DNA of 64,000 nt from a virus (lineage: Duplodnaviria; Caudoviricetes): positions 15,279 to 79,278 of the IMG/VR virus record IMGVR_UViG_3300037761_000250; one strand, written 5' to 3'. The notes beneath the pieces are model-generated. The model was not told the origin of the DNA and did no database searches. It worked only from the letters and a program-made list of their open reading frames with translations. This document shows, one piece after another, positions 18,665 through 45,415 of the stretch. The number at the start of each line of letters is the position of its first letter. Position 1 is the first letter of the stretch. Both the position numbers and the translations under genes were made by a program.

Positions 18665-19049
18665 GATCTAAGGACCCATGAATTTGTTTGGCTATTTCTT
18701 GGGCAGTTTGACCATGATCTACCCAATCATAACCTTTACGAGCTAACTCATAAGCAATTGATTTGTCAACTTCATGCTTTTTTTCGAGTATTTCACCAAC
18801 CGATACCTCATCATAAATTTTCATTTTACCTCTCAAAATTTTCTCACGCTGCCTCTGAGTCGTTCCTCCCCAAATACCATGTAATTTAGTCACGGGCCAA
18901 CTGAGCGCGTATCTTAAACATTCATTGGTAACTGGACAGCGACGGCAAACTGACTTTGCCTTTTTTGGTTTTCTTCCAGCGTCCTTAAAGAATATTTCTC
19001 TATCATAATTACGACAAAGTGCTTTTTCTTGCCAAGATAGGTCGTCCAT
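18657..19049 (-). CDS. whiB: WhiB-family Fe-S transcription factor
   Basis: WQEKALC...CRRCPVTNECLRYAL...GIWGGTT. Confidence 0.9.
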   Translation of the reverse strand: MDDLSWQEKALCRNYDREIFFKDAGRKPKKAKSVCRRCPVTNECLRYALSWPVTKLHGIWGGTTQRQREKILRGKMKIYDEVSVGEILEKKHEVDKSIAYELARKGYDWVDHGQTAQEIAKQIHGSLDHE

Positions 19050-19632
19050 ATGTCAACTCCAAATTTCCTCTTTCGTCATATTCAAAGTTCAGCTTTGTTA
19101 CATCGACGACAAAGGACTTAGGAAGTGAAATATATCCACCAGCATGTTTTACCACACCGGCCAAAAGCTTAGTTACCGTCAAGAAAGCTTCTACTTCCTT
19201 TAGGTCTTGAGTTTTGGACACGATAGATACGTAATCATCGATCAATTTGCCCTCAAAGTCCCCTACCACTTTTCATTCTCCCAATTTTGGTAGACAATCC
19301 AAGCATATTTGGTTCCATGCTTTCCATACCAATTGAACAAAGCACGCTTACGTTGCGAATCCGAACGCAGATTATTTAAGTAATTTACATCTTTGTCTGT
19401 TAGTTCACCTATGTATCGATATCTATTTATAGGTGTTTCACTTACCCATTCAATTACCATATTACGAAAATACAATGCCAGCAGCAGTGAACAGGCCATT
19501 ATCTACTAGGCAAACGGGTAAATAATTTGCTGTACTATGAAATTTCCTCGGTGCACCTGCTGGCAATCGAACTCCATTTTCAAAAAGCCATGCCTCTTTG
19601 GTCATATTGGTCGGATTAATATAAATTCCCAT
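19009..19632 (-). CDS. Small hypothetical genes (19009-19269, 19263-about 19460, 19462-19632)
   Basis: ORF track plus a hand-translated 56 aa ORF (MGIYINP...VCLVDNGLFTAAGIVFS). Confidence 0.45.
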
Positions 19633-19655
19633 TTCTACCTTCTTTCTTTTAGGAG

Positions 19656-19728
19656 TGCCCCCAACAGGATTCGAACCTGCGACCTTCGCATTAAAAGTGC
19701 GTAGCTCTGGCCACTGAGCTATGGAGGC
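19656..19728 (-). tRNA. tRNA-Lys(UUU)
   Basis: Cloverleaf with GCCTCCA/TGGGGGC acceptor, CT-TTT-AA loop and TTCGAAT; no encoded CCA. Confidence 0.95.
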
Positions 19729-19761
19729 AAAAATGGGGAGGCTATATGCCTCCCCGTTTTT
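19729..19761. terminator. Bidirectional terminator-like hairpin
   Basis: AAAAATGGGGAGGC-TATAT-GCCTCCCCGTTTTT between the Ltp gene and tRNA-Lys. Confidence 0.65.
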
Positions 19762-19778
19762 ATTTCAACAAATATGTT

Positions 19779-20279
19779 CTACAGTCCTACCTCAGTTGCT
19801 GCATGTTCCGCTTGCTTTGTGGTAAATCCTTCGAATTCCAACTGCTCGATCAGTCCTTGACGGGAGAAGTTCGAGAACTCAAGGTAATTCTCGGCACTAC
19901 CAACAGCCTGCGCCATCCAGTCTACATCTAGATAATCAACCGCGAACTCGGCATCTTCCGTAGAGAATCCTTCGAGTTCTAATTGATTAATAAGTCCCTT
20001 GCGGGAGAAATTGAAAATATCCAGGTAATTTTGAGCCGATCCAGTTGCTTGTTTCTGGGCAGTTGTCAACTCTGGATCGGTTGACATTTCTGTTTCTTTA
20101 TTATTCTCAGGTTGAACGGTAATGTTATCGCTCTGTCCTAAAGACGTAAGGGTAACAATTGTACCAAGAAGACACATCCCCAAAATTCCAACTAATACAA
20201 TTAGAACAATCCTTCTTGTTTTGTTCTTCTTCTTTTTCGGAGGAAACTCTCCGTTTTGTTGTGGATAATACTGTGTCAC
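19779..20279 (-). CDS. Ltp-family membrane protein (superinfection-exclusion-like)
   Basis: N-terminal TM helix plus two repeats A..YL....FSR.GLI.QLE.EGF....A..A. Confidence 0.8.
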   Translation of the reverse strand: MTQYYPQQNGEFPPKKKKNKTRRIVLIVLVGILGMCLLGTIVTLTSLGQSDNITVQPENNKETEMSTDPELTTAQKQATGSAQNYLDIFNFSRKGLINQLELEGFSTEDAEFAVDYLDVDWMAQAVGSAENYLEFSNFSRQGLIEQLEFEGFTTKQAEHAATEVGL

Positions 20280-20326
20280 TAAATTCCTTTCAAGTATTTA
20301 AGATATAATATATGGTTTCACTTGCG

Positions 20327-20399
20327 TAGTCCCAATGGGATTTGAACCCATGTCTCCGGAGCGAAAATCCGGAATCCTTGGCCACTAGACGATGGAACC
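20327..20399 (-). tRNA. tRNA-Glu(UUC)
   Basis: GGTTCCA/TGGGACT acceptor; CCGGA-TTTTCGC-TCCGG; TTCAAAT. Confidence 0.93.
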
Positions 20400-20502
20400 A
20401 GGGAATAGTGTTGCGGTTGGAAATTCCGCCTCCGTGCCTCACTATTGCTCAATGGCAAGATTACTCGGCAAGGTACCTTCCACGGCCCTCTTCACTATTC
20501 CG

Positions 20503-20574
20503 CTGGGATACCAAGATTCGAACTTGGACTGTCGGAACCAAAATCCGATGGCCTGCCATTTAGCCTATATCCCA
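20503..20574 (-). tRNA. tRNA-Gln(UUG)
   Basis: TGGGATA/TATCCCA acceptor; TCGGA-TTTTGGT-TCCGA; TTCGAAT. Confidence 0.93.
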
Positions 20575-21016
20575 TTGCAGTGTTGAGGTTATTCACGTCT
20601 CTAGAAAGTAAACGGACAAAGAAAACTTTCGAGCCGAAGAACAGGAATGTTTGGAGCCATTCCTGCATTGTTCTTAAAACAATTGTTCCCTCAACACTAC
20701 GCTTATTGAACCCACGTCAGTGACCTAAGATGATTAACAGCCTGTGATGTTAATTTATCATCTTATATTAGATGGTCATTGACGTGGGTCTTTCACAACT
20801 CAGGACTTGACTAATAATCAAGTAAGGCGCCTGAGCTAGCTTTAAGTGGGTATCGTGGTTGCCAGCCCATACCCAGTAAATCTCACCTGGCCGAACAGAT
20901 GTATTCACAGTGCGTCGGTGCACAGACAGAGCGTTCTATTGTCCAAACGGGTCAGGGTGCTTGAGCAATTAACGGGTGTCTTTACCATTTGTTAGTAAAA
21001 TTTACTAACATCGACG

Positions 21017-21158
21017 TGGGGCGGACAGGACTTGAACCTGTATCCTGCTGTCGTCGTTCACCCACCGGAAACCTCGCCTTGGTTGGCTACTCAGCCCAGC
21101 TATTTTCCAGCTTAACAGGTGGTGCTAGCACGCAGCTCTACCGTTGAGCTACCGCCCC
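21017..21158 (-). ncRNA. 142-nt tRNA-like RNA with expanded, branched anticodon domain
   Basis: Perfect GGGGCGG/CCGCCCC acceptor plus A73, D arm GCTC-AACGGTA-GAGC and T arm ACAGG-TTCAAGT-CCTGT, but about 86 nt between the D arm and the variable loop. Confidence 0.75.
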
Positions 21159-21464
21159 TCGATGGAGGAAAATGGCCATTCCCTCCATCTATCTACATTT
21201 GTTTAAGGAAAATAAACGTAGAAAACAACCCCACAGTTTAGGATGCACGTCCCGAGATAGCGGTTCTCACAACTTTTGTGTGACTTGTCACGAACCACCA
21301 GCTAAAGAAGTTTGTAAACGTGCATTCCAAACTTCTTTACTGGTTCAGTCGATGACGAGGAGTAAGTTGCCAACTCACCTCGAACCTCACGCAGTCGAGG
21401 CCAAGCGTCCAGTTTTGGTTTTGTTCACTTTAAGTGAACCAAGGTGTAACTGGAAAACACCTCG

Positions 21465-21537
21465 TGCGCCAAGTAGGATTTGAACCTACACTATACCGGG
21501 CTTAAACCGGTTGCCTCTACCGTTGGGCTATTAGCGC
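21465..21537 (-). tRNA. tRNA-Leu(UAA), short variable loop
   Basis: GCGCTAA/TTGGCGC; ACCGG-TTTAAGC-CCGGT; 5-nt variable region ATAGT; GTAGG-TTCAAAT-CCTAC. Confidence 0.9.
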
Positions 21538-21551
21538 GTCTAAATGAGTTG

Positions 21552-21695
21552 TTTAATTTATTATTTACCACTTAATGTGGAAGTGTCGCGTCGACTTTGC
21601 AACTCAGTATCCGGCGGTCCTTCTTGTTTAAGACAGTGTATCTGTCACCGTCAATACTGGACACTTCCACATTAAGTGGTCAATAATAAATTAAA
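21552..21695. repeat. 36-bp inverted repeat enclosing a 72-nt structured loop
   Basis: Arms 21552-21587 and 21660-21695 with one mismatch. Confidence 0.9.
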
Positions 21696-21829
21696 AGTTA
21701 AAAAGTTGTGAGTAGTCCCGGACGGATTAGTCTTAGTCTGTTCTCCCAGGCCGGGACACCCAGTTCCAGAACTTTTAGTGCGCGCGCTCCGTGGTCTCGT
21801 CGCCGAGATTGCATACTCACAACTTGGAC

Positions 21830-22500
21830 AATAGCCAATATATCTAGATATACTGACTATTATCACTTGGGCACATAACTAGATGTCGTTTAATACCGAG
21901 GTTCTCCAACCAGGTACCCCAAGCTTAGTAAAGGTCAACAGACGAATAATAATCCCCTATCCGTTCTGCCCGTTACCGGATTTTCGACCTTCACTGATTC
22001 AACTTTTGGAACTACGGCGTCGACCAAACCGCACTTGCCTCTTTAATCCCTATGCCTAATCCTGACGGACAGGTCTCCCTCACGGGTGGCCACGGGCCGC
22101 AACGCAGAGCTACCTCGTTACGGTAGATGCGGTTCCTAACCCTTATCAATCCCGGAGGATGATAAGGAATTAATTTGTCCATCGTGACGACAATGTTTGC
22201 TCCGTCCATGAACTTTCGGTTTGACCAGAGGAACTATTGCGCGGATTCAGGCAATTAATCTCACGATTAATGCAATCTCCGAGGAGATTATCTTTGCTCA
22301 TCGCTCACACTTCCGGAGTGTCCACCGGAAGACTCCTACCACCGACAGGGAAAATTCGAAGGTATGCCTTTAGTTCGCTAAGCTGAACAGGTCATGACTC
22401 CTGCGTGCCACATCCGTGGAAGTACCACTGTTATATGACATACCAACGTTTTAGGTGTCCCGTTTTTCGCGCACCTTCGGGACCACAAGGCGAGGAAGCA
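21830..22500 (-). ncRNA. Candidate large structured ncRNA
   Basis: No convincing CDS; dense hairpins, several capped by GNRA loops on the minus strand. Confidence 0.5.
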
Positions 22501-22513
22501 TTAAATGCCGCGG

Positions 22514-22587
22514 TGGCGGGGACGGGATTTGAACCCGTGAACTCCAGATTATGAGTCTGGCGTGGTACCGAACTCCACTACCCCGCG
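22514..22587 (-). tRNA. tRNA-Met(CAU), initiator-like acceptor
   Basis: CGCGGGG/CCCCGCC with unpaired C1; CCAGA-CTCATAA-TCTGG; TTCAAAT. Confidence 0.9.
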
Positions 22588-22907
22588 TCACGTAGCGGTT
22601 GGTTAGGCCGCTACGGTCGGGAACCACCCGACAAGTCCAAGAGAAATATTAATTCCTAACCGATTATAGGATCGTTATTCTCTTGGAGGTTTGAGTGGGC
22701 GCCTGTTCAGTCTATCGTATTGGCGACAATCCCTTGACGCCTCAAAAGTCAGGCCGGTCGTTTAAAACATTCCAGCGCGTGTAAGAATGTCCCCACGTGT
22801 ATTTCTAAGAATTCAATTGTCAATGTCCGTTTGCTGCCCGTTTGTGGCCCGTTCGGGCGCCTCTCGCCCTATCGTAGCGCATGGGCGGGCAGGCGCGCAA
22901 CCCGGTA

Positions 22908-22941
22908 TCAAGATCAAGTTACTCGAGTAACTTGATCTTGA
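22908..22941. repeat. Perfect 34-bp palindrome
   Basis: TCAAGATCAAGTTACTC|GAGTAACTTGATCTTGA. Confidence 0.95.
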
Positions 22942-22958
22942 CGAATAGGACTGGTGTA

Positions 22959-23718
22959 CTAATGCTGTTTATTCCAGGCCAAATCAAACGCATCATCCGC
23001 ATCATCATTGGATGGTCCAATTGAATTAGTCGGATCAGGTGGTGGCAATGGAACTACACTAGTTGGTAATGTAAAATTATCCGTCGGTCTATCTTTAACT
23101 AGCCAATTAATAATTTCCCATGGAATCCAAATTAGTGCTCCAAACCCGCAAGTCAGTATGGTAATAATGCACAGGAATAGTCTTATTTTTCTTGATTCCA
23201 TGTATATATACCTTACACTGATAGCAGTTCATTCTTAACTAAGTAATTAAAGCTTACATCACTTAGCCATAGATTTATTCCATAATTATTAACGTCCGCA
23301 GTTACTGCGAAACTGCTACCATATGGTAAATCTTCACGTTCCATCAAAGACTTAACTAACTCATTTACTGTTTCTCGTTTTGCTTGAACGTGGTGTGGAA
23401 ATACATCGGGCAAATTCTTTTGGTAAATTGACATATTAATTTCACTTACCAATCTTTTCTATGTTGAGAAATGTGAAGTCCTCTTGACTTTAGCATTTCT
23501 TCAAGTCTGTCTACCTTTAAAATAGACAGAGCCTGCTTGTCTAATGCCTCTTCTACTTCCTCAATGACAGGTGGTGTTGAACTTAATTTAGTAGGTTTAT
23601 ATTCTTCACGACAAGACTTACAACGTACTGGTGGTCGACCGCGCCCTCCTCGAATTTTAAATTCCTGACGACAGTCTCGGCAAACACGAGTATTAGTTAA
23701 CACTGTTAATAATTCCAA
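22959..23718 (-). CDS. Three small genes: membrane protein (22959-23201), hypothetical (23213-23452), Zn-finger with GRGRPP motif (23446-23718)
   Basis: TM segment; CRDC...GRGRPPVRCKSC. Confidence 0.6.
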
Positions 23719-23914
23719 TCACTAGAACAATAATTGCAAAGATTGCAATTATTATGAATGGCCAGCCCGTAAAATGTTCACCATCACTATCACCATTACC
23801 ATTCCAGTCGGGCATTTTTATTCTCCAAGATCATTTTGTAGGTACACTAATGTTAATCCATTTCATAGGTGGTAAGAGGAGGAGTGCCGAGCGTCCATAA
23901 CGACACTCCTCCAG

Positions 23915-23988
23915 TGGGACAAGAGGGACTTGAACCCCCGACCGATCGATTATGAGTCGACTGCTCTAACCAGCTGAGCTATTGTCCC
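23915..23988 (-). tRNA. tRNA-Ile2(CAU; lysidine type, reads AUA), alternatively elongator Met
   Basis: GGGACAA/TTGTCCC; GAGCAGTCGACTCATAATCG resembles bacterial ileX tRNAs. Confidence 0.85.
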
Positions 23989-24033
23989 AACAATGACGCA
24001 GCTTCTATAACTACGCCATGTTAATTTGGGTGT

Positions 24034-25212
24034 TTAACTCTTTGCTATTAATCCCAATATATTCAATAATGCCTCTGCACTAGTTTTAGCTTCTTGTAAT
24101 TCATTCTTTATTTCTTCTAATGTTCCAGACAGAATTGGTTCCTCTGATTCTGAGCTATACAAAACATATACTTTAATTGATTTGTATCCAATTACCCTTT
24201 TGTATTCATATGTTCCATCAGGTAATGGATATTCAGTAGTTATTTTATCAGTAATTGGTCGTAGTACGTCAGGTTGATTTTCAAATCGAAAAAAGAATTT
24301 CATCTAACTACCTATTTAACTGGTGAAGTGATTGACAAGTGTGATGACAGCCCAGGCAATCAGTCCCAAAATTCCTAGTCCAAGTAGGGCGCAGAACGCG
24401 AACCATAGCATGAACCACCAGGGCATACCAGGAAGCTCCGGCTTACGGTCAGAGAATCGCATTATTTGTATCCTTTCTTAGCAAACACAATTCTCAGTTA
24501 GGCGCACAAACCATGCACTTGGGGACCAATGATCGGAATAGCGAGCGGTTACCCACCCATCTTCATCCTCCTCTAAGATGACTTCGGCATTCCTCTCCGT
24601 TGCTTTTCGTTCCATATCTTTCAAGGTGCAATAATTACATCTGGTCAGTGTACTCATCTCAGTCATCCCTTGGCGTGATAGCGTCTCGAATGCTGTTCAA
24701 CACATTGAGAAATTCTCGCTCACCGTACCTAATCGGCACAGCACCTAGTAGAATACTGGCCGCGACACCTCTTTCATATCCTCGCCTGACGTGGTTGAGA
24801 ATATCTGAAATTACTCGAACTAGAATATCCCGCTCCCGAGCAGTCAGCTCGCGCTTAGGTGGATTGTTTGACCCGTCATAAGCATCGGTGCCTTCCGGCC
24901 AAGACTTGTAGCCATTGCCTTCCATAATTTTCTTTATTCTCTCTAATAATTCATCGTTCATTTCTTCCCTTTCTGTTTGATGTACCAACCGGCCACACAG
25001 TTTCAACTGTGTAGCCTATTGGCAGATCAAAATAGAGTTACTACCTTGAAATCAATCGTCTTATAAGAATCGTCCTTTGTTTTAATTACATCCAATAAAA
25101 CATTCTTAATGAATTCTTGAACATCTGAAATAGAATCTGTAAAAGCGCTGAATTTCCAATGTGGTTCTTTATTTGCAATTTGAAATTTAACGAACAGGGC
25201 AAACGTAACCAT
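24034..25212 (-). CDS. Small hypothetical genes (24034-24303, 24478-24666, 24659-25006, 25027-25212)
   Basis: Packed minus-strand ORFs. Confidence 0.5.
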
Positions 25213-25911
25213 CTATGTACCAATTCCTTTTCTATTTTCTCGGGAAAGTTTGCTGCTGCCTAGATCTGCCCGCCGGCCAGCGGCGAAGCCGTCTGTAAAT
25301 CCGTTTTGGCTAGAAGCGGTTAGGTCATGCTTTATATATTTAAGATTAGGAAACGCCTCGTCTACTGCTTGATCAACTTCGGTTTCTCGATTCCGAAGCA
25401 CTGGCAGATTGTCCGGCTCTTCGGTTTTTATTCGTTTGTTCATGTAGTGAAGTCGGTTCCCGACTTCAACCACAAAACCATACATCCAACTACTATTATA
25501 GGACTTCCCATTTATGTAGCTTGGTTTCTTGGTTGATGCTTCCATCACTCCGAATAACATTTGGGTATGTAGAGATGCGTACAACATCTTAATTCGGTCC
25601 AGATCACCCTTGTAACCAAACACACGGACAGCGTTTGAATTATCAAGGAAAACAGGTTTGCCACCAAGGTGGATAGCAATTTCTGCAAGTAAGGTTTTTG
25701 CTTGCTTTCTGTAATGAGAACTGAACTTAATATCCAAGTAAATAACCTGTTCACCAGTTACCTTGTCTCGGGCTTTAGCCTCCTCAATTCCATACTTGGC
25801 CATTAGATAGGTAGCCTTGTCAATCAAGGCATCGCGTTCGGCTTCGGTTACACCGGCCGCATTTGCCTTAGTTAGCAAGCCTTCTATTACGTTTCTCCAT
25901 TTTTCTGCCAT
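25213..25911 (-). CDS. DUF2786-domain protein
   Basis: IEGLLTKANAAGVTEAERDALIDKATYLMAKYGI. Confidence 0.75.
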   Translation of the reverse strand: MAEKWRNVIEGLLTKANAAGVTEAERDALIDKATYLMAKYGIEEAKARDKVTGEQVIYLDIKFSSHYRKQAKTLLAEIAIHLGGKPVFLDNSNAVRVFGYKGDLDRIKMLYASLHTQMLFGVMEASTKKPSYINGKSYNSSWMYGFVVEVGNRLHYMNKRIKTEEPDNLPVLRNRETEVDQAVDEAFPNLKYIKHDLTASSQNGFTDGFAAGRRADLGSSKLSRENRKGIGT

Positions 25912-35075: not shown

Positions 35076-35614
35076 AATCGATGATCTTGAACTAGCTATC
35101 TTCAAGGTCATCGATGAGACACCCCCCTCTGACCTGCGAGTATGCGGTGAATCTACGCGATCTGCTTTATTAGTAAATGAGAATCGATGATCTTGAACTA
35201 GCTATCTTAAAGATCATCTATGTGTCACCCCTTCTGACCTGCTCATATTCGGTGAATCCACGTGATCTGCTTTATTAGTAAATGAGAATTGACCACTGTC
35301 GATCACTACTTGATCTACTAGATCAGTGGTCGTCGATTCTACGTGATCTGCTTTATTCGTAAATGAGAATGCCCTGGTCAGAGCGTTTTTGATCTCATTT
35401 ACCTCTTAGAATGAAAATGAGAATTTGCAAGATCAAAATACCTCCTGAGCTGCACATTCTCATTTTCTCTTATCTATGAGCGGATCACGTATATTTGATG
35501 GTTGTCAATTCTCATTTACTAATATAGCAGATCACGTAGATTTGCCGAGTATGCGCAGGTCAGACCCGGTGTTCCATCGACGATCTTGAAGATAGATAGT
35601 TCAAGATCATCGAT
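35076..35614. repeat. About 106-bp repeat cluster (2 tandem, 1 partial, 1 inverted copy); candidate origin or packaging region
   Basis: Units 35076-35181, 35182-35286, partial 35337-35370 and inverted 35508-35614. Confidence 0.9.
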
Positions 35615-37319: not shown

Positions 37320-37659
37320 TTATACCACTATATGGTGACTCGCCACGGATGTACAGTTTTTACAGGCTACTGCCGATAAAGTCGATAACCTTAGTTTGGA
37401 ACAGTTTGATTGCTCTGTTCCAATTGTGCGTATAGGTGCCATTGATCCATCCGCCGCAACTGAGCGATTCTTCCGTTATGGTGGCAACTACGTACTTTGT
37501 AGGTGCTTGTGTCCAGTGGTCTGGATAGATTTCTACCAGAATGACGCCAATTGTCGGACCCGTGTAGGAATGAATCACTGTGTACCCATTGAGGGTACTT
37601 GGGATTTTTAGCATGACTTGTCCGTTTCTATGTGGGCAAGTCACCATATAGTGGTATAA
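37320..37659. repeat. Cassette 1: 21/21-bp inverted repeat enclosing gene 37360-37614
   Basis: TTATACCACTATATGGTGACT (37320-37340) and its exact reverse complement (37639-37659). Confidence 0.95.
37360..37614 (-). CDS. Small hypothetical protein (paralog of 38453-38698)
   Basis: MLKIPSTLNGYTV..GPTIGVIL; start moved to ATG 37614. Confidence 0.7.
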   Translation of the reverse strand: MLKIPSTLNGYTVIHSYTGPTIGVILVEIYPDHWTQAPTKYVVATITEESLSCGGWINGTYTHNWNRAIKLFQTKVIDFIGSSL

Positions 37660-37664
37660 CACTT

Positions 37665-38139
37665 AATTGTCTAGGCATGTGCCTACTTGTCCGGAATTGT
37701 GCTAGTTGCGAGGATAGACCATTTCGCACTTTTCGCACTCTACTGTGCGGGTTTGTGCAACTGTGTCCAGATCCTCATCATTCACGTACATCATCCCGGA
37801 AACCCACGAATGAAGGCATTCGTCCGGATAATCTGGAATGTCCGGATCGTCTGGATAGCTGTTTCTGTCCTCATAGTCCATTTCGAGGAAACTGTCCAGT
37901 TCGTACATTTTGCTACTTCCTGTCCAGATAGAGAACATTGTCACCGATTACCACAAATGACTGACCGGTACCGTTTCCCTGGATTTGCGCATTCCATGCG
38001 CAAAAGCCCGGACTGTCCTCAGTTGGGCAGGATGGGGCAATTGCGAACAGAATCGCAATTAGGAAGTTTAAGAAAAATTCCATGGTTTGTACCTCTCTGT
38101 CCGTTTTGTGTGGACAAGTAGGCGCAAACCTAGACAATT
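37665..38139. repeat. Cassette 2: 25/28-bp inverted repeat enclosing genes 37702-37908 and 37913-38083
   Basis: AATTGTCTAGGCATGTGCCTACTTGTCC (37665-37692) and GGACAAGTAGGCGCAAACCTAGACAATT (38112-38139). Confidence 0.93.
37702..38083 (-). CDS. Two small genes: acidic Cys/His protein (37702-37908) and putative secreted peptide (37913-38083)
   Basis: MYELDSFLEMDYED...; MEFFLNFLIAILFAIAPSCP... (signal-like) with RBS GAGG. Confidence 0.65.
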
Positions 38140-38142
38140 CTA

Positions 38143-38745
38143 GATGAATCCGGACATATGCTGCCATGTCCAATTTGTCTTAAAGGATCTGATCTTTCCG
38201 AACTAGGTAGGTTCTGTGTGAATTGACCGATTCGACTAGGTATCGGTCAATTGGGATGACAAATCCATTGTGGTACTGTTCGTACGGCTTTGCGTCGAGT
38301 ATCACCTTCACCCGAATTGGGATCAATGCGTCATCTAGCATGACTTCGACCGTATCCTGGATATTTGTGCCGTAATAATCGGTTCCGTACTTTTCGCTGC
38401 ATTCGCGGCAATAGCGCGGATCGTGGTCGTGTGTCCTAGTTGTCATGATTTGTCAGTCCGTCAACAGATTCGCGTGGAGTAGATTGGAAAGTCTGGTATG
38501 GAACCTAGTGCGTGCGATGATGTATCTGTCCGTAAACTCACAGTCGCCCAATTCGTCCCGTTCGAGACTTTTTATTGAAATGTTCCCCACGACCCATTCG
38601 TCCTTATCCTCATTGGATGCGAGGATAATACCAAATACGGGGGTAACATATGCCATGTGCACTTTGTACCCTTGGATACTATCCGGAACCTTTAGCATGA
38701 TTTGTCCATTCTGTTAGGACATAGCAGCATATGACCGGATTCATC
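38143..38745. repeat. Cassette 3: 27/29-bp inverted repeat enclosing genes 38180-38446 and 38453-38698
   Basis: GATGAATCCGGACATATGCTGCCATGTCC (38143-38171) and GGACATAGCAGCATATGACCGGATTCATC (38717-38745). Confidence 0.95.
38180..38698 (-). CDS. Two small hypothetical genes (38180-38446, 38453-38698)
   Basis: ORF track; both lie exactly inside cassette 3. Confidence 0.7.
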
Positions 38746-38747
38746 GT

Positions 38748-39270
38748 GACTTATACCGTTATAAAGTGACTCGCCTGGATTGCCTCAGATGTGGACGTTG
38801 TGCCGTTCGCGTAGTACGTCCCCATTGAGCAGAAGGTACTTTTCGCTCCATGTGCGATCAATGTACTCATTGGCCAGATTGATCGAATCGTTGTACTTTG
38901 CCCCAAGAACCTTGGAAACGACCATTCCGTCCGTAGTTCTGTGGAATGCTCCATTTTCGGAGGTAAGTGCGCATGGCCAGGCTTCGACCATAATGCCCAC
39001 AATGCCTTCACTTGGGACGATAAGGACGTCTCCGTCCTTAATGCCGTCTTCGACCTGAGTTAGGTTATATGCGTCTCTTGACCCATATGCGAAGATATGC
39101 ACCTTTGGTGCGTATTGTGCTTCTTGTGCGATTCGTACTTCTCCGACGGTTAGGTCCGTTCTGCAACTTCCGTCACAGTTAGACAGGTTATCCACGCATT
39201 TGTCGGAATTGTTCATGATGATCCCTTTGTCCGTTTTGACTAAGCGAGTCACCATATAACGGTATAAGTC
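38748..39270. repeat. Cassette 4: 25/27-bp inverted repeat enclosing gene 38785-39216
   Basis: GACTTATACCGTTATAAAGTGACTCGC (38748-38774) and GCGAGTCACCATATAACGGTATAAGTC (39244-39270). Confidence 0.95.
38785..39216 (-). CDS. Hypothetical protein (143 aa)
   Basis: Start moved to ATG 39216 after an ACGGACAAAGGG leader. Confidence 0.7.
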   Translation of the reverse strand: MNNSDKCVDNLSNCDGSCRTDLTVGEVRIAQEAQYAPKVHIFAYGSRDAYNLTQVEDGIKDGDVLIVPSEGIVGIMVEAWPCALTSENGAFHRTTDGMVVSKVLGAKYNDSINLANEYIDRTWSEKYLLLNGDVLRERHNVHI

Positions 39271-39272
39271 TA

Positions 39273-39659
39273 GACGTGTTCGGACAAATGCCACTTTATC
39301 TGTTTTGCACTACTTGCGGATGATTGTACCATTCTCGTCATAGAAGACGATTTGTCCGTTTGCATCCCGGAATGAGATGAATTGACCGGAAAGTGCCATA
39401 CCGGTGTTATGGCGCACGTTTGTGCGCAAAACACCAGAATCGGGGGAAATGTCCGGGTTTGCTTCGGCTTGACGCAGTACATCCCAATATGTGTACTTTG
39501 CCTTGATACCCGGGGGTTTGTTCACCTTGATGCGCTTTGGGCGCCTTTGTCCGTTTTTGTGAACCATTCCGTGGTAATTGGGCATAATACCCTCCATGTC
39601 TGGGAAAATCGGAATTGTCCAGATTTTTACAGACAAAGTGGCATATGACCGAACACGTC
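39273..39659. repeat. Cassette 5: 28/31-bp inverted repeat enclosing gene 39310-39585
   Basis: GACGTGTTCGGACAAATGCCACTTTATCTGT (39273-39303) and ACAGACAAAGTGGCATATGACCGAACACGTC (39629-39659). Confidence 0.95.
39310..39585 (-). CDS. Basic hypothetical protein (91 aa)
   Basis: GGAGGG RBS; start at ATG 39585. Confidence 0.7.
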   Translation of the reverse strand: MPNYHGMVHKNGQRRPKRIKVNKPPGIKAKYTYWDVLRQAEANPDISPDSGVLRTNVRHNTGMALSGQFISFRDANGQIVFYDENGTIIRK

Positions 39660-43875: not shown

Positions 43876-43903
43876 GTATTGTTCTTTGTAACAGGGGGCA
43901 GGT

Positions 43904-45415
43904 ATGTCGGAAGGTATGTCGGAAGGTATGAATGAAAAAGTTACTACTCAACAGGCAGTAGAAATACTTGAGGAGCAAAATCGTCTAGGCGAAATGACGC
44001 TTCGAGAGGCACTGCACGAGTATGACATTGTTGATATACATTATGAGCCAGGCGGAGGTTCCCACGTAGTTTTATCGGAACGAGAATCGACCATTGATCG
44101 AGGTACTGGTTTTCGAGAAATGGGATTTGTCGATCCTAGTCCGTTCACTGCCTGGACTCGTCTTGAGCATGTGTCGGAACTTAGAGAACGACGTGGTATT
44201 CGAACTTATTACGACATGGCAAGGTCCGATGGTACCATTCGGGCCGCGCTTAGAATTCTTAAAACGCCTATTCAAGGTGCGGATTGGTACATTGAATCAG
44301 CTTCGGATTCGGTTATTGATAGAAATATTGCCGATTTTGTGGCCAATAATTTGTTCGAAGAGCTGGATACTACCTGGGAAAGGGTGGTCGAAGATTGTCT
44401 TCGAATGCTAGATTATGGCTTTTTCCCAATGGAGAAAGTTTATAAGATTGATGGTAACCGGATCAAGCTAGAAAGATTAGCACCAATTCACCCGTTGGAC
44501 GTTCAGTTATGGGAATATGATCCAAATGGTCGGGTAACTGGGCTAACGATGGAGCCGTTGACTGGTATTGATCGAGATATTCAACCTATCCATATACCGT
44601 ACAGTAAACTGTTAATGTTTGTATTTGAGATGGAGGGAAGCGATCTACGCGGTACTTCGGTATTGAGGTCTGCCTACAAACATTTCTATTACAAGGATAT
44701 TCTCTACAAGCTGGATGCCATTCAAAAGGAACGGCATGGAATTGGCGTTCCTTGTATTAAACTTCCGGTGGGATATAGTAAGGAAGACAAGGAAATTGCA
44801 AATGAGTTGGGTAGAAACCTTCGTACCAATGAGCGAGCATTCATTGTTGCTCCGTTAAGTTGGGAGATTGGTTTCGCCAAGATTGAAGGGCAACCAGTAG
44901 ATTGCATTCCTAGCATTAACCACCATGATCAAAAGATTATGCAGAATATTATGGCCACATTTACGGCCAATAAGACCGAAGAAATGACCAAGGAAAGCTT
45001 GGATACCTTCTACAAGTCTACTAGGTACATTGCCAATGGCGGGGTGGCGGCTGTTTTCAATAAGTTCTTGATTAAAGAACTTGTCGATATGAACTTTTTG
45101 CGTAAGAGTGGATTTCCCAAACTTCGGGTTCGTCGTATGGGCGAGTGGGAAGACACCCGGACCATGACATTTGCTCTGCGTAACTTGGTGGGTGCCAAAT
45201 TTATTACACCCGATGATCCGACCGAGGTGTTTCTGCGTAAGTTGCTTTCTCTGCCAGAGATGGATAAAGCTACTGCTCGGGGTATGGAGGGACCGTTGGC
45301 CGATCCTAGTAAAAATGTTGATAAACCAGAAGTTGGATTGCCTAAACAACAGCCAAAACCACCGATTCAACCACCGGCTTTGCAAGCTGGCGCTGATCGG
45401 TCGGGCGGCGATTGA
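43904..45415 (+). CDS. Portal protein (DUF935/Mu gp29-like)
   Basis: LDYGFFPMEKVY, GTSVLRSAYKH and QKERHGIGVP; follows the terminase. Confidence 0.9.
   Translation: MSEGMSEGMNEKVTTQQAVEILEEQNRLGEMTLREALHEYDIVDIHYEPGGGSHVVLSERESTIDRGTGFREMGFVDPSPFTAWTRLEHVSELRERRGIRTYYDMARSDGTIRAALRILKTPIQGADWYIESASDSVIDRNIADFVANNLFEELDTTWERVVEDCLRMLDYGFFPMEKVYKIDGNRIKLERLAPIHPLDVQLWEYDPNGRVTGLTMEPLTGIDRDIQPIHIPYSKLLMFVFEMEGSDLRGTSVLRSAYKHFYYKDILYKLDAIQKERHGIGVPCIKLPVGYSKEDKEIANELGRNLRTNERAFIVAPLSWEIGFAKIEGQPVDCIPSINHHDQKIMQNIMATFTANKTEEMTKESLDTFYKSTRYIANGGVAAVFNKFLIKELVDMNFLRKSGFPKLRVRRMGEWEDTRTMTFALRNLVGAKFITPDDPTEVFLRKLLSLPEMDKATARGMEGPLADPSKNVDKPEVGLPKQQPKPPIQPPALQAGADRSGGD

Follow-up and report, generated by a model that had tools for sequence, protein, structure and literature searches.

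GOLLD and ROOL are phage RNAs encoded near tRNA islands; one studied GOLLD is positioned downstream of tRNA-Met, and ROOL is a hairpin-rich RNA of about 580 nt that occurs in phages and prophages (10.1101/2024.12.08.627333). Phage T4 encodes RNAC and RNAD, which are RNAs of unknown function (PMC9697503). The locus described here, a spacer between two tRNA genes of a phage, lies in a tRNA array as GOLLD and ROOL do, in agreement with the context that an earlier, sequence-only reading had proposed for it, and this context is the sole resemblance of the spacer to the two families. ROOL has a multi-pseudoknot architecture, and T4 RNAC and RNAD, each about 120-140 nt, are encoded in the T4 tRNA gene cluster and released by tRNA-processing enzymes. 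Processing stalks for RNase III are known from rRNA operons and from phage T7 early transcripts, and RNase III-type enzymes need roughly two helical turns.

The window, i.e., the whole 64-kb stretch of DNA that was analysed, corresponds to bases 15279-79278 of a 79,278-bp IMG/VR virus record that is rated complete. The virus encodes a terminase, a portal protein, a major head protein, helicases, an exonuclease and a WhiB-like regulator, which suggests a tailed phage with a presumably actinobacterial host. Only one public run holds the sequence, a sediment metagenome (DNA) that is probably its source; no RNA run holding the spacer sequence is listed among public runs, and the contigs of the source run contain no sequence variants in the spacer. 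Every long ORF from position 1 to approximately 39.6 kb is carried by the minus strand, as are all seven tRNA genes at 19655-23988 (Lys, Glu, Gln, an insert-bearing tRNA, Leu and two Met). Within this array, a tract of about 2.5 kb (~20400-22950) contains four tRNAs, and about 2.2 kb of it is non-coding, without a single coding-like score by codon usage. The spacer in question fills 974 nt of the tract, and the interval 21830-22500, which the sequence-only reading had flagged as a candidate large structured RNA, represents its 5′ two-thirds; the placement downstream of tRNA-Met was correct. The spacer, its flanking tRNA genes and the six modules of its predicted fold are as follows.

22512-22587, minus strand: tRNA-Met(CAU), called by ARAGORN and matched by the Rfam tRNA model at 65.7 bits; its 3′ end is the 5′ boundary of the spacer RNA.
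21538-22511, minus strand: whole spacer from tRNA-Met to tRNA-Leu, 974 nt, non-coding, with no open frame and no Rfam match.
22037-22491, minus strand: D1, a predicted multi-branched domain of 455 nt that holds most of the hairpins quoted earlier; z -2.66 on the minus strand and -1.49 on the plus strand.
21927-21995, minus strand: D2, a predicted three-way junction of 69 nt with an 11-bp closing stem; z -4.68 minus, -2.15 plus.
21865-21924, minus strand: D3, a weakly defined module of 60 nt; z -1.7 minus (not significant), -1.2 plus.
21827-21864, minus strand: D4, a predicted hairpin whose 17-bp stem includes three G.U pairs and is capped by a CUAG loop; z -7.0 minus, -1.5 plus.
21703-21825, minus strand: D5, a module of 123 nt outside the flagged interval; z -2.9 minus, -3.9 plus.
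21552-21695, minus strand: D6, a module of 144 nt outside the flagged interval; z -10.5 minus, -12.3 plus.
21464-21537, minus strand: tRNA-Leu(UAA), called by ARAGORN and matched by the Rfam tRNA model at 61.5 bits; its 5′ end (RNase P site) is the 3′ boundary of the spacer RNA.

Two of the tRNA genes deserve separate mention. The minus-strand tRNA-Leu(UAA) is only 73-74 nt long and is devoid of the long variable arm that bacterial leucine tRNAs usually have. The insert-bearing tRNA at 21016-21158 (minus strand) has approximately 57-70 nt inserted in the anticodon region and scores 45.8 bits over 142 nt with the Rfam tRNA model; with introns allowed, ARAGORN reads it as tRNA-Arg(CCG) interrupted by a 57-nt intron. 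The related virus G006 contains a weaker tRNA-like element (L108:13301-13393, minus strand), whose insert measures 15 nt and which is called at a lowered threshold only.

The spacer is non-coding, which bears out the earlier statement that it contains no credible coding sequence. All six frames are closed, with 10-23 stops per frame per 325 codons, and all three types of stop (TAA, TAG and TGA) are present in each of them. With any one type of stop read through, the longest frame on either strand does not exceed 115 codons, except for TAA, where the antisense strand reaches 215. Stop-codon recoding was rejected, as no plausible frame is opened by it. Codon log-likelihoods of the spacer ORFs range from -0.14 to -0.43 per codon, apart from one plus-strand ORF at +0.03, compared with +0.13 to +0.33 for real genes. 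The spacer fragments have no Pfam match and no similarity to the ORFs that fill the inter-tRNA spacers of relatives. The spacer thus has none of the properties of a protein-coding gene or pseudogene in terms of open frame, codon usage or fragment homology. Codon-usage scoring identifies the small ORFs at 22959-23718 and 24034-24303 as probable real genes. The first of these regions holds three successive minus-strand ORFs of 80, 79 and 90 aa with positive scores; the 80-aa ORF is predicted to encode a small membrane protein, and its weak relatives in G008 and G015 (E 0.002-0.02) are found beside tRNAs.

The longest open fragment of the spacer (73 aa) returned one match among 1.84 billion proteins (P0004, E 4e-8), which was rejected as a protein homolog: its ORF is laid over a perfect tandem repeat (255 nt x 4.3) in a contig of 68% GC, the score represents a single weak match counted five times, and similarity is absent at the DNA level. 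The repeat is located at L178:5078-6177, where it is called as a 409-aa protein, in a bacterial contig of 125 kb and 68% GC, and is flanked by the gene for a large fn3/laminin-G protein and by HipA-like and integrase genes. P0004 is likely a gene-calling artefact or a repeat protein, with no relation to the window.

The sequence-only reading had considered a divergent GOLLD or ROOL, and the covariance models give no support to membership of either family. Scanning of the region 19000-25500 (6.5 kb) with cmscan against 4227 Rfam models at E<=10 returned tRNAs and noise only, and the 974-nt spacer alone, scanned with the laxest filters, returned noise only (miRNA and lncRNA models, E 0.3-9). Neither scan matched the models for group I or group II introns, tmRNA or RNase P, and the 6S, OLE, HEARO, raiA, ribozyme and T-box models have no match in the spacer either; even with its thresholds lowered, ARAGORN detects neither a pseudo-tRNA nor a tmRNA there. 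Direct searches of the whole 79-kb genome, in which family membership is defined by gathering scores of 150 bits for GOLLD (RF02032) and 99.1 bits for ROOL (RF03087), gave no match to GOLLD at E<=10 and none to ROOL at E<=10; the latter search is weak by itself, having returned no match in control genomes either, but the cmscan negatives do not depend on it. The spacer is comparable to GOLLD in being phage-encoded (terminase, portal and capsid genes), non-coding, flanked by tRNAs and downstream of tRNA-Met, but differs in lacking a covariance-model match, evidence of a conserved 3′ domain, homologs and covariation. With ROOL it shares hairpins, a phage genome and proximity to tRNA genes; unlike ROOL, it has no covariance-model match, and the stability of its largest domain is at background level. 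That it is a highly divergent member of one of these families is accordingly the least probable of the readings considered, for although the context agrees (a phage, a tRNA array, a position downstream of tRNA-Met) and the size is in the right range, neither the 79-kb genome nor the isolated spacer matches RF02032 or RF03087 at E<=10, and both families are absent from the arrays of relatives too.

As minus-strand RNA, the whole spacer (21538-22511) has a minimum free energy of -350.8 and a z of -13.6, compared with a z of -6.6 for the plus strand. The value of -13.6 stems from the long stems at 21552-21864, which are mostly beyond the flagged interval; the segment 21870-22511 has a z of -2.55 as minus-strand RNA and of -0.9 as plus-strand RNA, and 200-nt windows inside 21900-22500 range from +0.5 to -1.9. 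The minimum-free-energy fold consists of six stem-closed modules, of which D2-D6 abut at distances of 0-7 nt, while D1 and D2 are separated by about 40 nt. D1 is closed by GCCUU/GAGGC and UGGUCCC/GGGAUUA, the closing helices having pair probabilities of 0.96-0.98, and the closing stem depends on G.U pairs (-15.3 on the minus strand vs -9.1 on the plus strand). For comparison, 25 coding-sense windows of the same length from the same genome have a mean z of -1.2 (sd 1.4), and 16% of them reach -2.66; the folding of D1 is no better than that of this genome's coding RNA. D3, closed by GCUUGGG/CCCAAGU, has a pair probability of 0.84.

D2 and D4 are clearly above chance and minus-strand-specific as RNA signals, and their stems rely on G.U pairs. 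The closure of D2, which holds the CCG-GUAA-CGG hairpin, has a pair probability of 0.97, and none of 300 shuffles is as good on the minus strand; D4 is stable on the minus strand only, at -17.7 kcal/mol as minus-strand RNA vs -5.0 as plus-strand RNA. D5 is closed by a perfect 12-bp stem (AAGUUGUGAGUA/UACUCACAACUU; pair probability 0.93) and D6 by a 36-bp stem with one mismatch, formed by an inverted repeat that is 97% complementary and has an AT-rich base. D6 ends 14 nt upstream of tRNA-Leu and encloses 72 nt of non-coding cargo, and D4-D6 jointly have a z of about -9.6 on both strands. The strongest structural evidence is thus located at and beyond the edge of the flagged interval. The earlier claim of a structured RNA stands in part, in that some minus-strand-specific structure exists at the RNA level (D2, D4 and the tetraloops described below), and fails for most of the interval, which is not above chance.

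Among the imperfect stems tested, D4, D2, the closing stem of D1 and four of five cassette repeats are more stable as minus-strand than as plus-strand RNA. This strand-specific stability through G.U pairs is indicative of selection acting on the minus-strand transcript and not on the DNA. The cassettes are situated at 37320-39659, where five back-to-back inverted-repeat pairs with arms of 25-57 nt each enclose one or two small minus-strand genes, and a complex of inverted repeats of 47-114 nt is found at approximately 35.1-35.6 kb (35077-35614). The greater predicted stability of four of the five cassette stems on the minus strand suggests that they may act as stalks at the transcript level. 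The arms of D6 were considered as copies of the cassette inverted repeats at 37-39 kb and rejected, as the two are not similar.

Strong minus-strand structure, exceeding even that of the flagged interval, is also seen in the remaining gene-free spacers of the array (z -7.0 at 20575-21016, -5.0 at 21159-21463 and -4.9 at 22588-22958), for which reason structure is a property of the whole 20.4-22.95 kb tract and not of one discrete gene. Of the non-coding blocks of the array other than tRNAs, that at 20586-20707 (minus strand) alone is kept in a relative, with approximately 71% identity over 92 nt (E 2e-5) to L109:6785-6913 of G008. It contains a hairpin, CAGGAAUG...CAUUCCUG, with one compensatory change from G-C to A-U, followed by an invariant UUCUUCGGCUCG, and the lengths of its indels are not multiples of three. 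A small conserved RNA is one possible identity of the block, a terminator-like element another.

Every hairpin quoted by the sequence-only reading is present where it had been placed. GNRA loops are found on the minus strand only for TAATC-GTGA-GATTA (22256-22269), CCC-GTGA-GGG (22077-22086) and CCG-GTAA-CGG (21970-21979), and the remaining hairpins, CCTTATCA/GATAAGG (22141-22167), CTTCCGG/CCGGAAG and AATCTCC/GGAGATT, were confirmed. In 21870-22511, the minus strand has six hairpins capped by GNRA or UNCG tetraloops vs 2.2 expected in shuffles (P ~0.016), and the plus strand has two vs 1.5. By this density the interval ranks in the top 1% when every 642-nt window of both strands of the 64-kb window is counted, and such a density is more typical of RNAs with tertiary structure. 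An equal density is reached elsewhere only at 43900-44950 (plus strand), inside the portal gene, with 6-7 per 642 nt. The description of the interval as dense in hairpins is thus apt insofar as the hairpins are real and the tetraloop count is high, but does not extend to the stability of the 455-nt core D1, which is not above the genome background.

No homolog of the spacer was detected. A distant-mode blastn search of 50,697 phage records with a 5.5-kb query matched nothing but tRNAs, and none of the records matched the spacer by itself at E<=1. Loci anchored on the neighbouring 232-aa gene, whose relatives among 5.8 billion proteins are only 29-33% identical, and on a 166-aa gene contain no related spacer, and neither do metagenome loci anchored on the helicase, all of which are at most 52% identical. 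A capsid-anchored search yielded 308 related viral contigs, of which the best 80 of 308 were kept (capsid identity 53-71%); the full records of 28 capsid relatives, compared with 4.4 kb of the DNA, share tRNAs and short chance words only, and blastn with a word size of 7 together with nhmmer found no similarity to the spacer in approximately 1 Mb of locus sequence. Exact-word scans with a 28-mer of tRNA-Met and a 20-mer of D1 returned no spacer homolog. Two candidates were rejected: a 23-nt exact match in an Acetobacteraceae MAG does not extend, and a 19-nt match in G011 falls within an ORF of 512 aa. A covariance model built on D2 and D3 from the single sequence had no hit in 30 relatives; once the filters were switched off, one marginal match of 18 bits (E ~0.03, 44 model nt missing) appeared upstream of tRNA-His in G008, and the GAAGGTNGAAA word of this match occurs at chance frequency in the loci compared. 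Since no homologs were found, the single sequence provides no covariation.

In five longer relatives, the tRNA genes all lie on one strand in dispersed arrays, where Rfam identifies tRNAs only, GOLLD and ROOL being absent. Their inter-tRNA spacers are mostly filled with ORFs of 100-340 aa on the tRNA strand, so the gene-free design is not general. In G006, a spacer follows the tRNA-Met that is most similar to the present tRNA-Met; this spacer measures 446 nt, is structured (z -3.9), has no minus-strand ORF of at least 40 aa wholly within it and has no sequence similarity to the spacer described here. A counterpart that is structured and yet dissimilar is more in keeping with cis-acting spacers that evolve fast than with a conserved RNA machine.

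The reading that we favour, tentatively and with a confidence that falls a little short of even, is that the spacer is co-transcribed as part of a tRNA operon and that its abutting stem-closed modules serve as processing and stability elements. The spacer and the phage tRNA genes would be transcribed from the minus strand as a single long precursor, which would fold into the chain of abutting modules D1-D6. Host RNase P and 3′-end nucleases would excise the tRNAs; the long perfect stems (D6, and perhaps D4 and D5) would be RNase III-type cleavage sites or protective stalks, and such stalks would insulate and stabilise the RNA pieces. The D1-D3 RNA (~640 nt) would be released as a by-product and may persist, like T4 RNAC and RNAD; its sequence does not indicate an activity of its own. 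The sequence shows that the spacer is non-coding, that it is on the strand used by all neighbouring genes and that several of its stems carry a minus-strand G.U signature; the transcription, cleavage and stability of its RNA we infer. The layout of genes on a single strand, the absence of terminator-like sites on the minus strand at 20300-24600, the modular fold and the strand-specific stems together support a long minus-strand precursor made of stem-closed units, and the closing stems of the modules are abutting and of high probability. A strong intrinsic-terminator-like hairpin (GGGGAGGC...GCCUCCCC, then AUUUUUG) is present on the minus strand at 19755-19735, between a superinfection-exclusion-like gene and tRNA-Lys, and is the sole minus-strand site of its kind near the array; promoter-like and terminator-like sites are no more frequent than in shuffles.

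With respect to the described systems, the spacer agrees with T4 RNAC and RNAD in lying inside a phage tRNA cluster on the tRNA strand, but differs from them in being 974 nt long and modular, and it is known here from DNA sequence alone. D6, as a predicted 36-bp duplex within a polycistronic transcript, resembles RNase III stalks, for which a near-perfect duplex of at least about 20 bp is expected. Unlike in such stalks, the cargo of D6 is only 72 nt of non-coding RNA; D6 lies outside the flagged interval, and the stems inside it are shorter (11-17 bp), that of D4 reaching 17 bp. Several observations run against processing as the role of the spacer: a cis-acting function does not need a 455-nt D1, nothing explains the retention of so much non-coding RNA in a compact phage genome, the tetraloop density is in the top 1%, D5 and D6 are no less stable on the plus than on the minus strand and may therefore act at the DNA level, and the gene-free design is not shared generally by relatives.

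The main rival is a new class of large trans-acting structured phage RNA with a GOLLD/ROOL-like context, an unrelated sequence and fold, and so far a single genome. We consider such a class rather unlikely, and it is slightly more doubtful that a new class of large tRNA-array RNA with a GNRA/UNCG-rich fold, seen so far in the sediment phage only, has its first member in D1-D3 or in the 974-nt spacer as a whole. Non-coding sequence of approximately 640-970 nt is kept beside tRNAs in a compact genome, the typical context of GOLLD and ROOL (10.1101/2024.12.08.627333); the GNRA/UNCG-capped hairpins of the minus strand belong to the top 1% of the genome, D1 is closed by long-range stems that are of high probability and G.U-dependent, and D2 and D4 clearly act at the RNA level. 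However, D1 is at the background of coding RNA and local windows have a z of about 0, no homolog was found in the 50,697 phage records, the IMG/VR relatives or the relatives' tRNA arrays, only the source run contains the sequence, and a single sequence gives no covariation.

The spacer could, with about the same low probability as a founding member, be a functionless remnant, i.e., decayed genes or recombination debris between tRNA genes with largely incidental hairpins, as could follow the loss of small ORFs or homing-endonuclease-type genes like those filling the relatives' spacers. The relatives' spacers mostly carry ORFs of 100-340 aa and the frames here are shattered, D1 and D3 are thermodynamically ordinary, and the sequence is an orphan. 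On the other hand, no fragment retains similarity to a protein, whether in Pfam, among the relatives' ORFs or in 1.84 billion proteins, and neither minus-strand-specific G.U stems nor tetraloop enrichment is expected of debris. Phage genomes, moreover, seldom retain useless DNA on the scale of kilobases.

It is highly improbable that the spacer is an element at the DNA level, for instance an origin of replication or a site of recombination or packaging with cruciform-forming inverted repeats. D5 and D6 are as stable on one strand as on the other, D6 combines 36-bp arms with an AT-rich base, and the tract is situated among replication genes (helicases, exonuclease), but the repeats of D5 and D6 lie outside the flagged interval and the stems inside it are specific to the RNA strand. 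The spacer tract furthermore contains no iterons or direct repeats, its GC content is above that of its neighbours, and the GC-skew switch occurs at approximately 39-40 kb and not at the spacer.

The spacer is a real and unusual non-coding tract in an orphan phage. The function of GOLLD and ROOL, both of which are found in phage tRNA arrays, is still unknown, and if the spacer were a third, unrelated large RNA, this would suggest that phages have recurrently adopted the pairing of tRNAs with a large RNA as a strategy. With transcript processing as the favoured reading, the minus-strand transcripts of this virus, comprising both tRNA spacers and small-gene cassettes, seem to be built from units closed by long, G.U-marked stems, which, if true, would represent an unusually explicit architecture of transcript processing for an actinophage-like virus.
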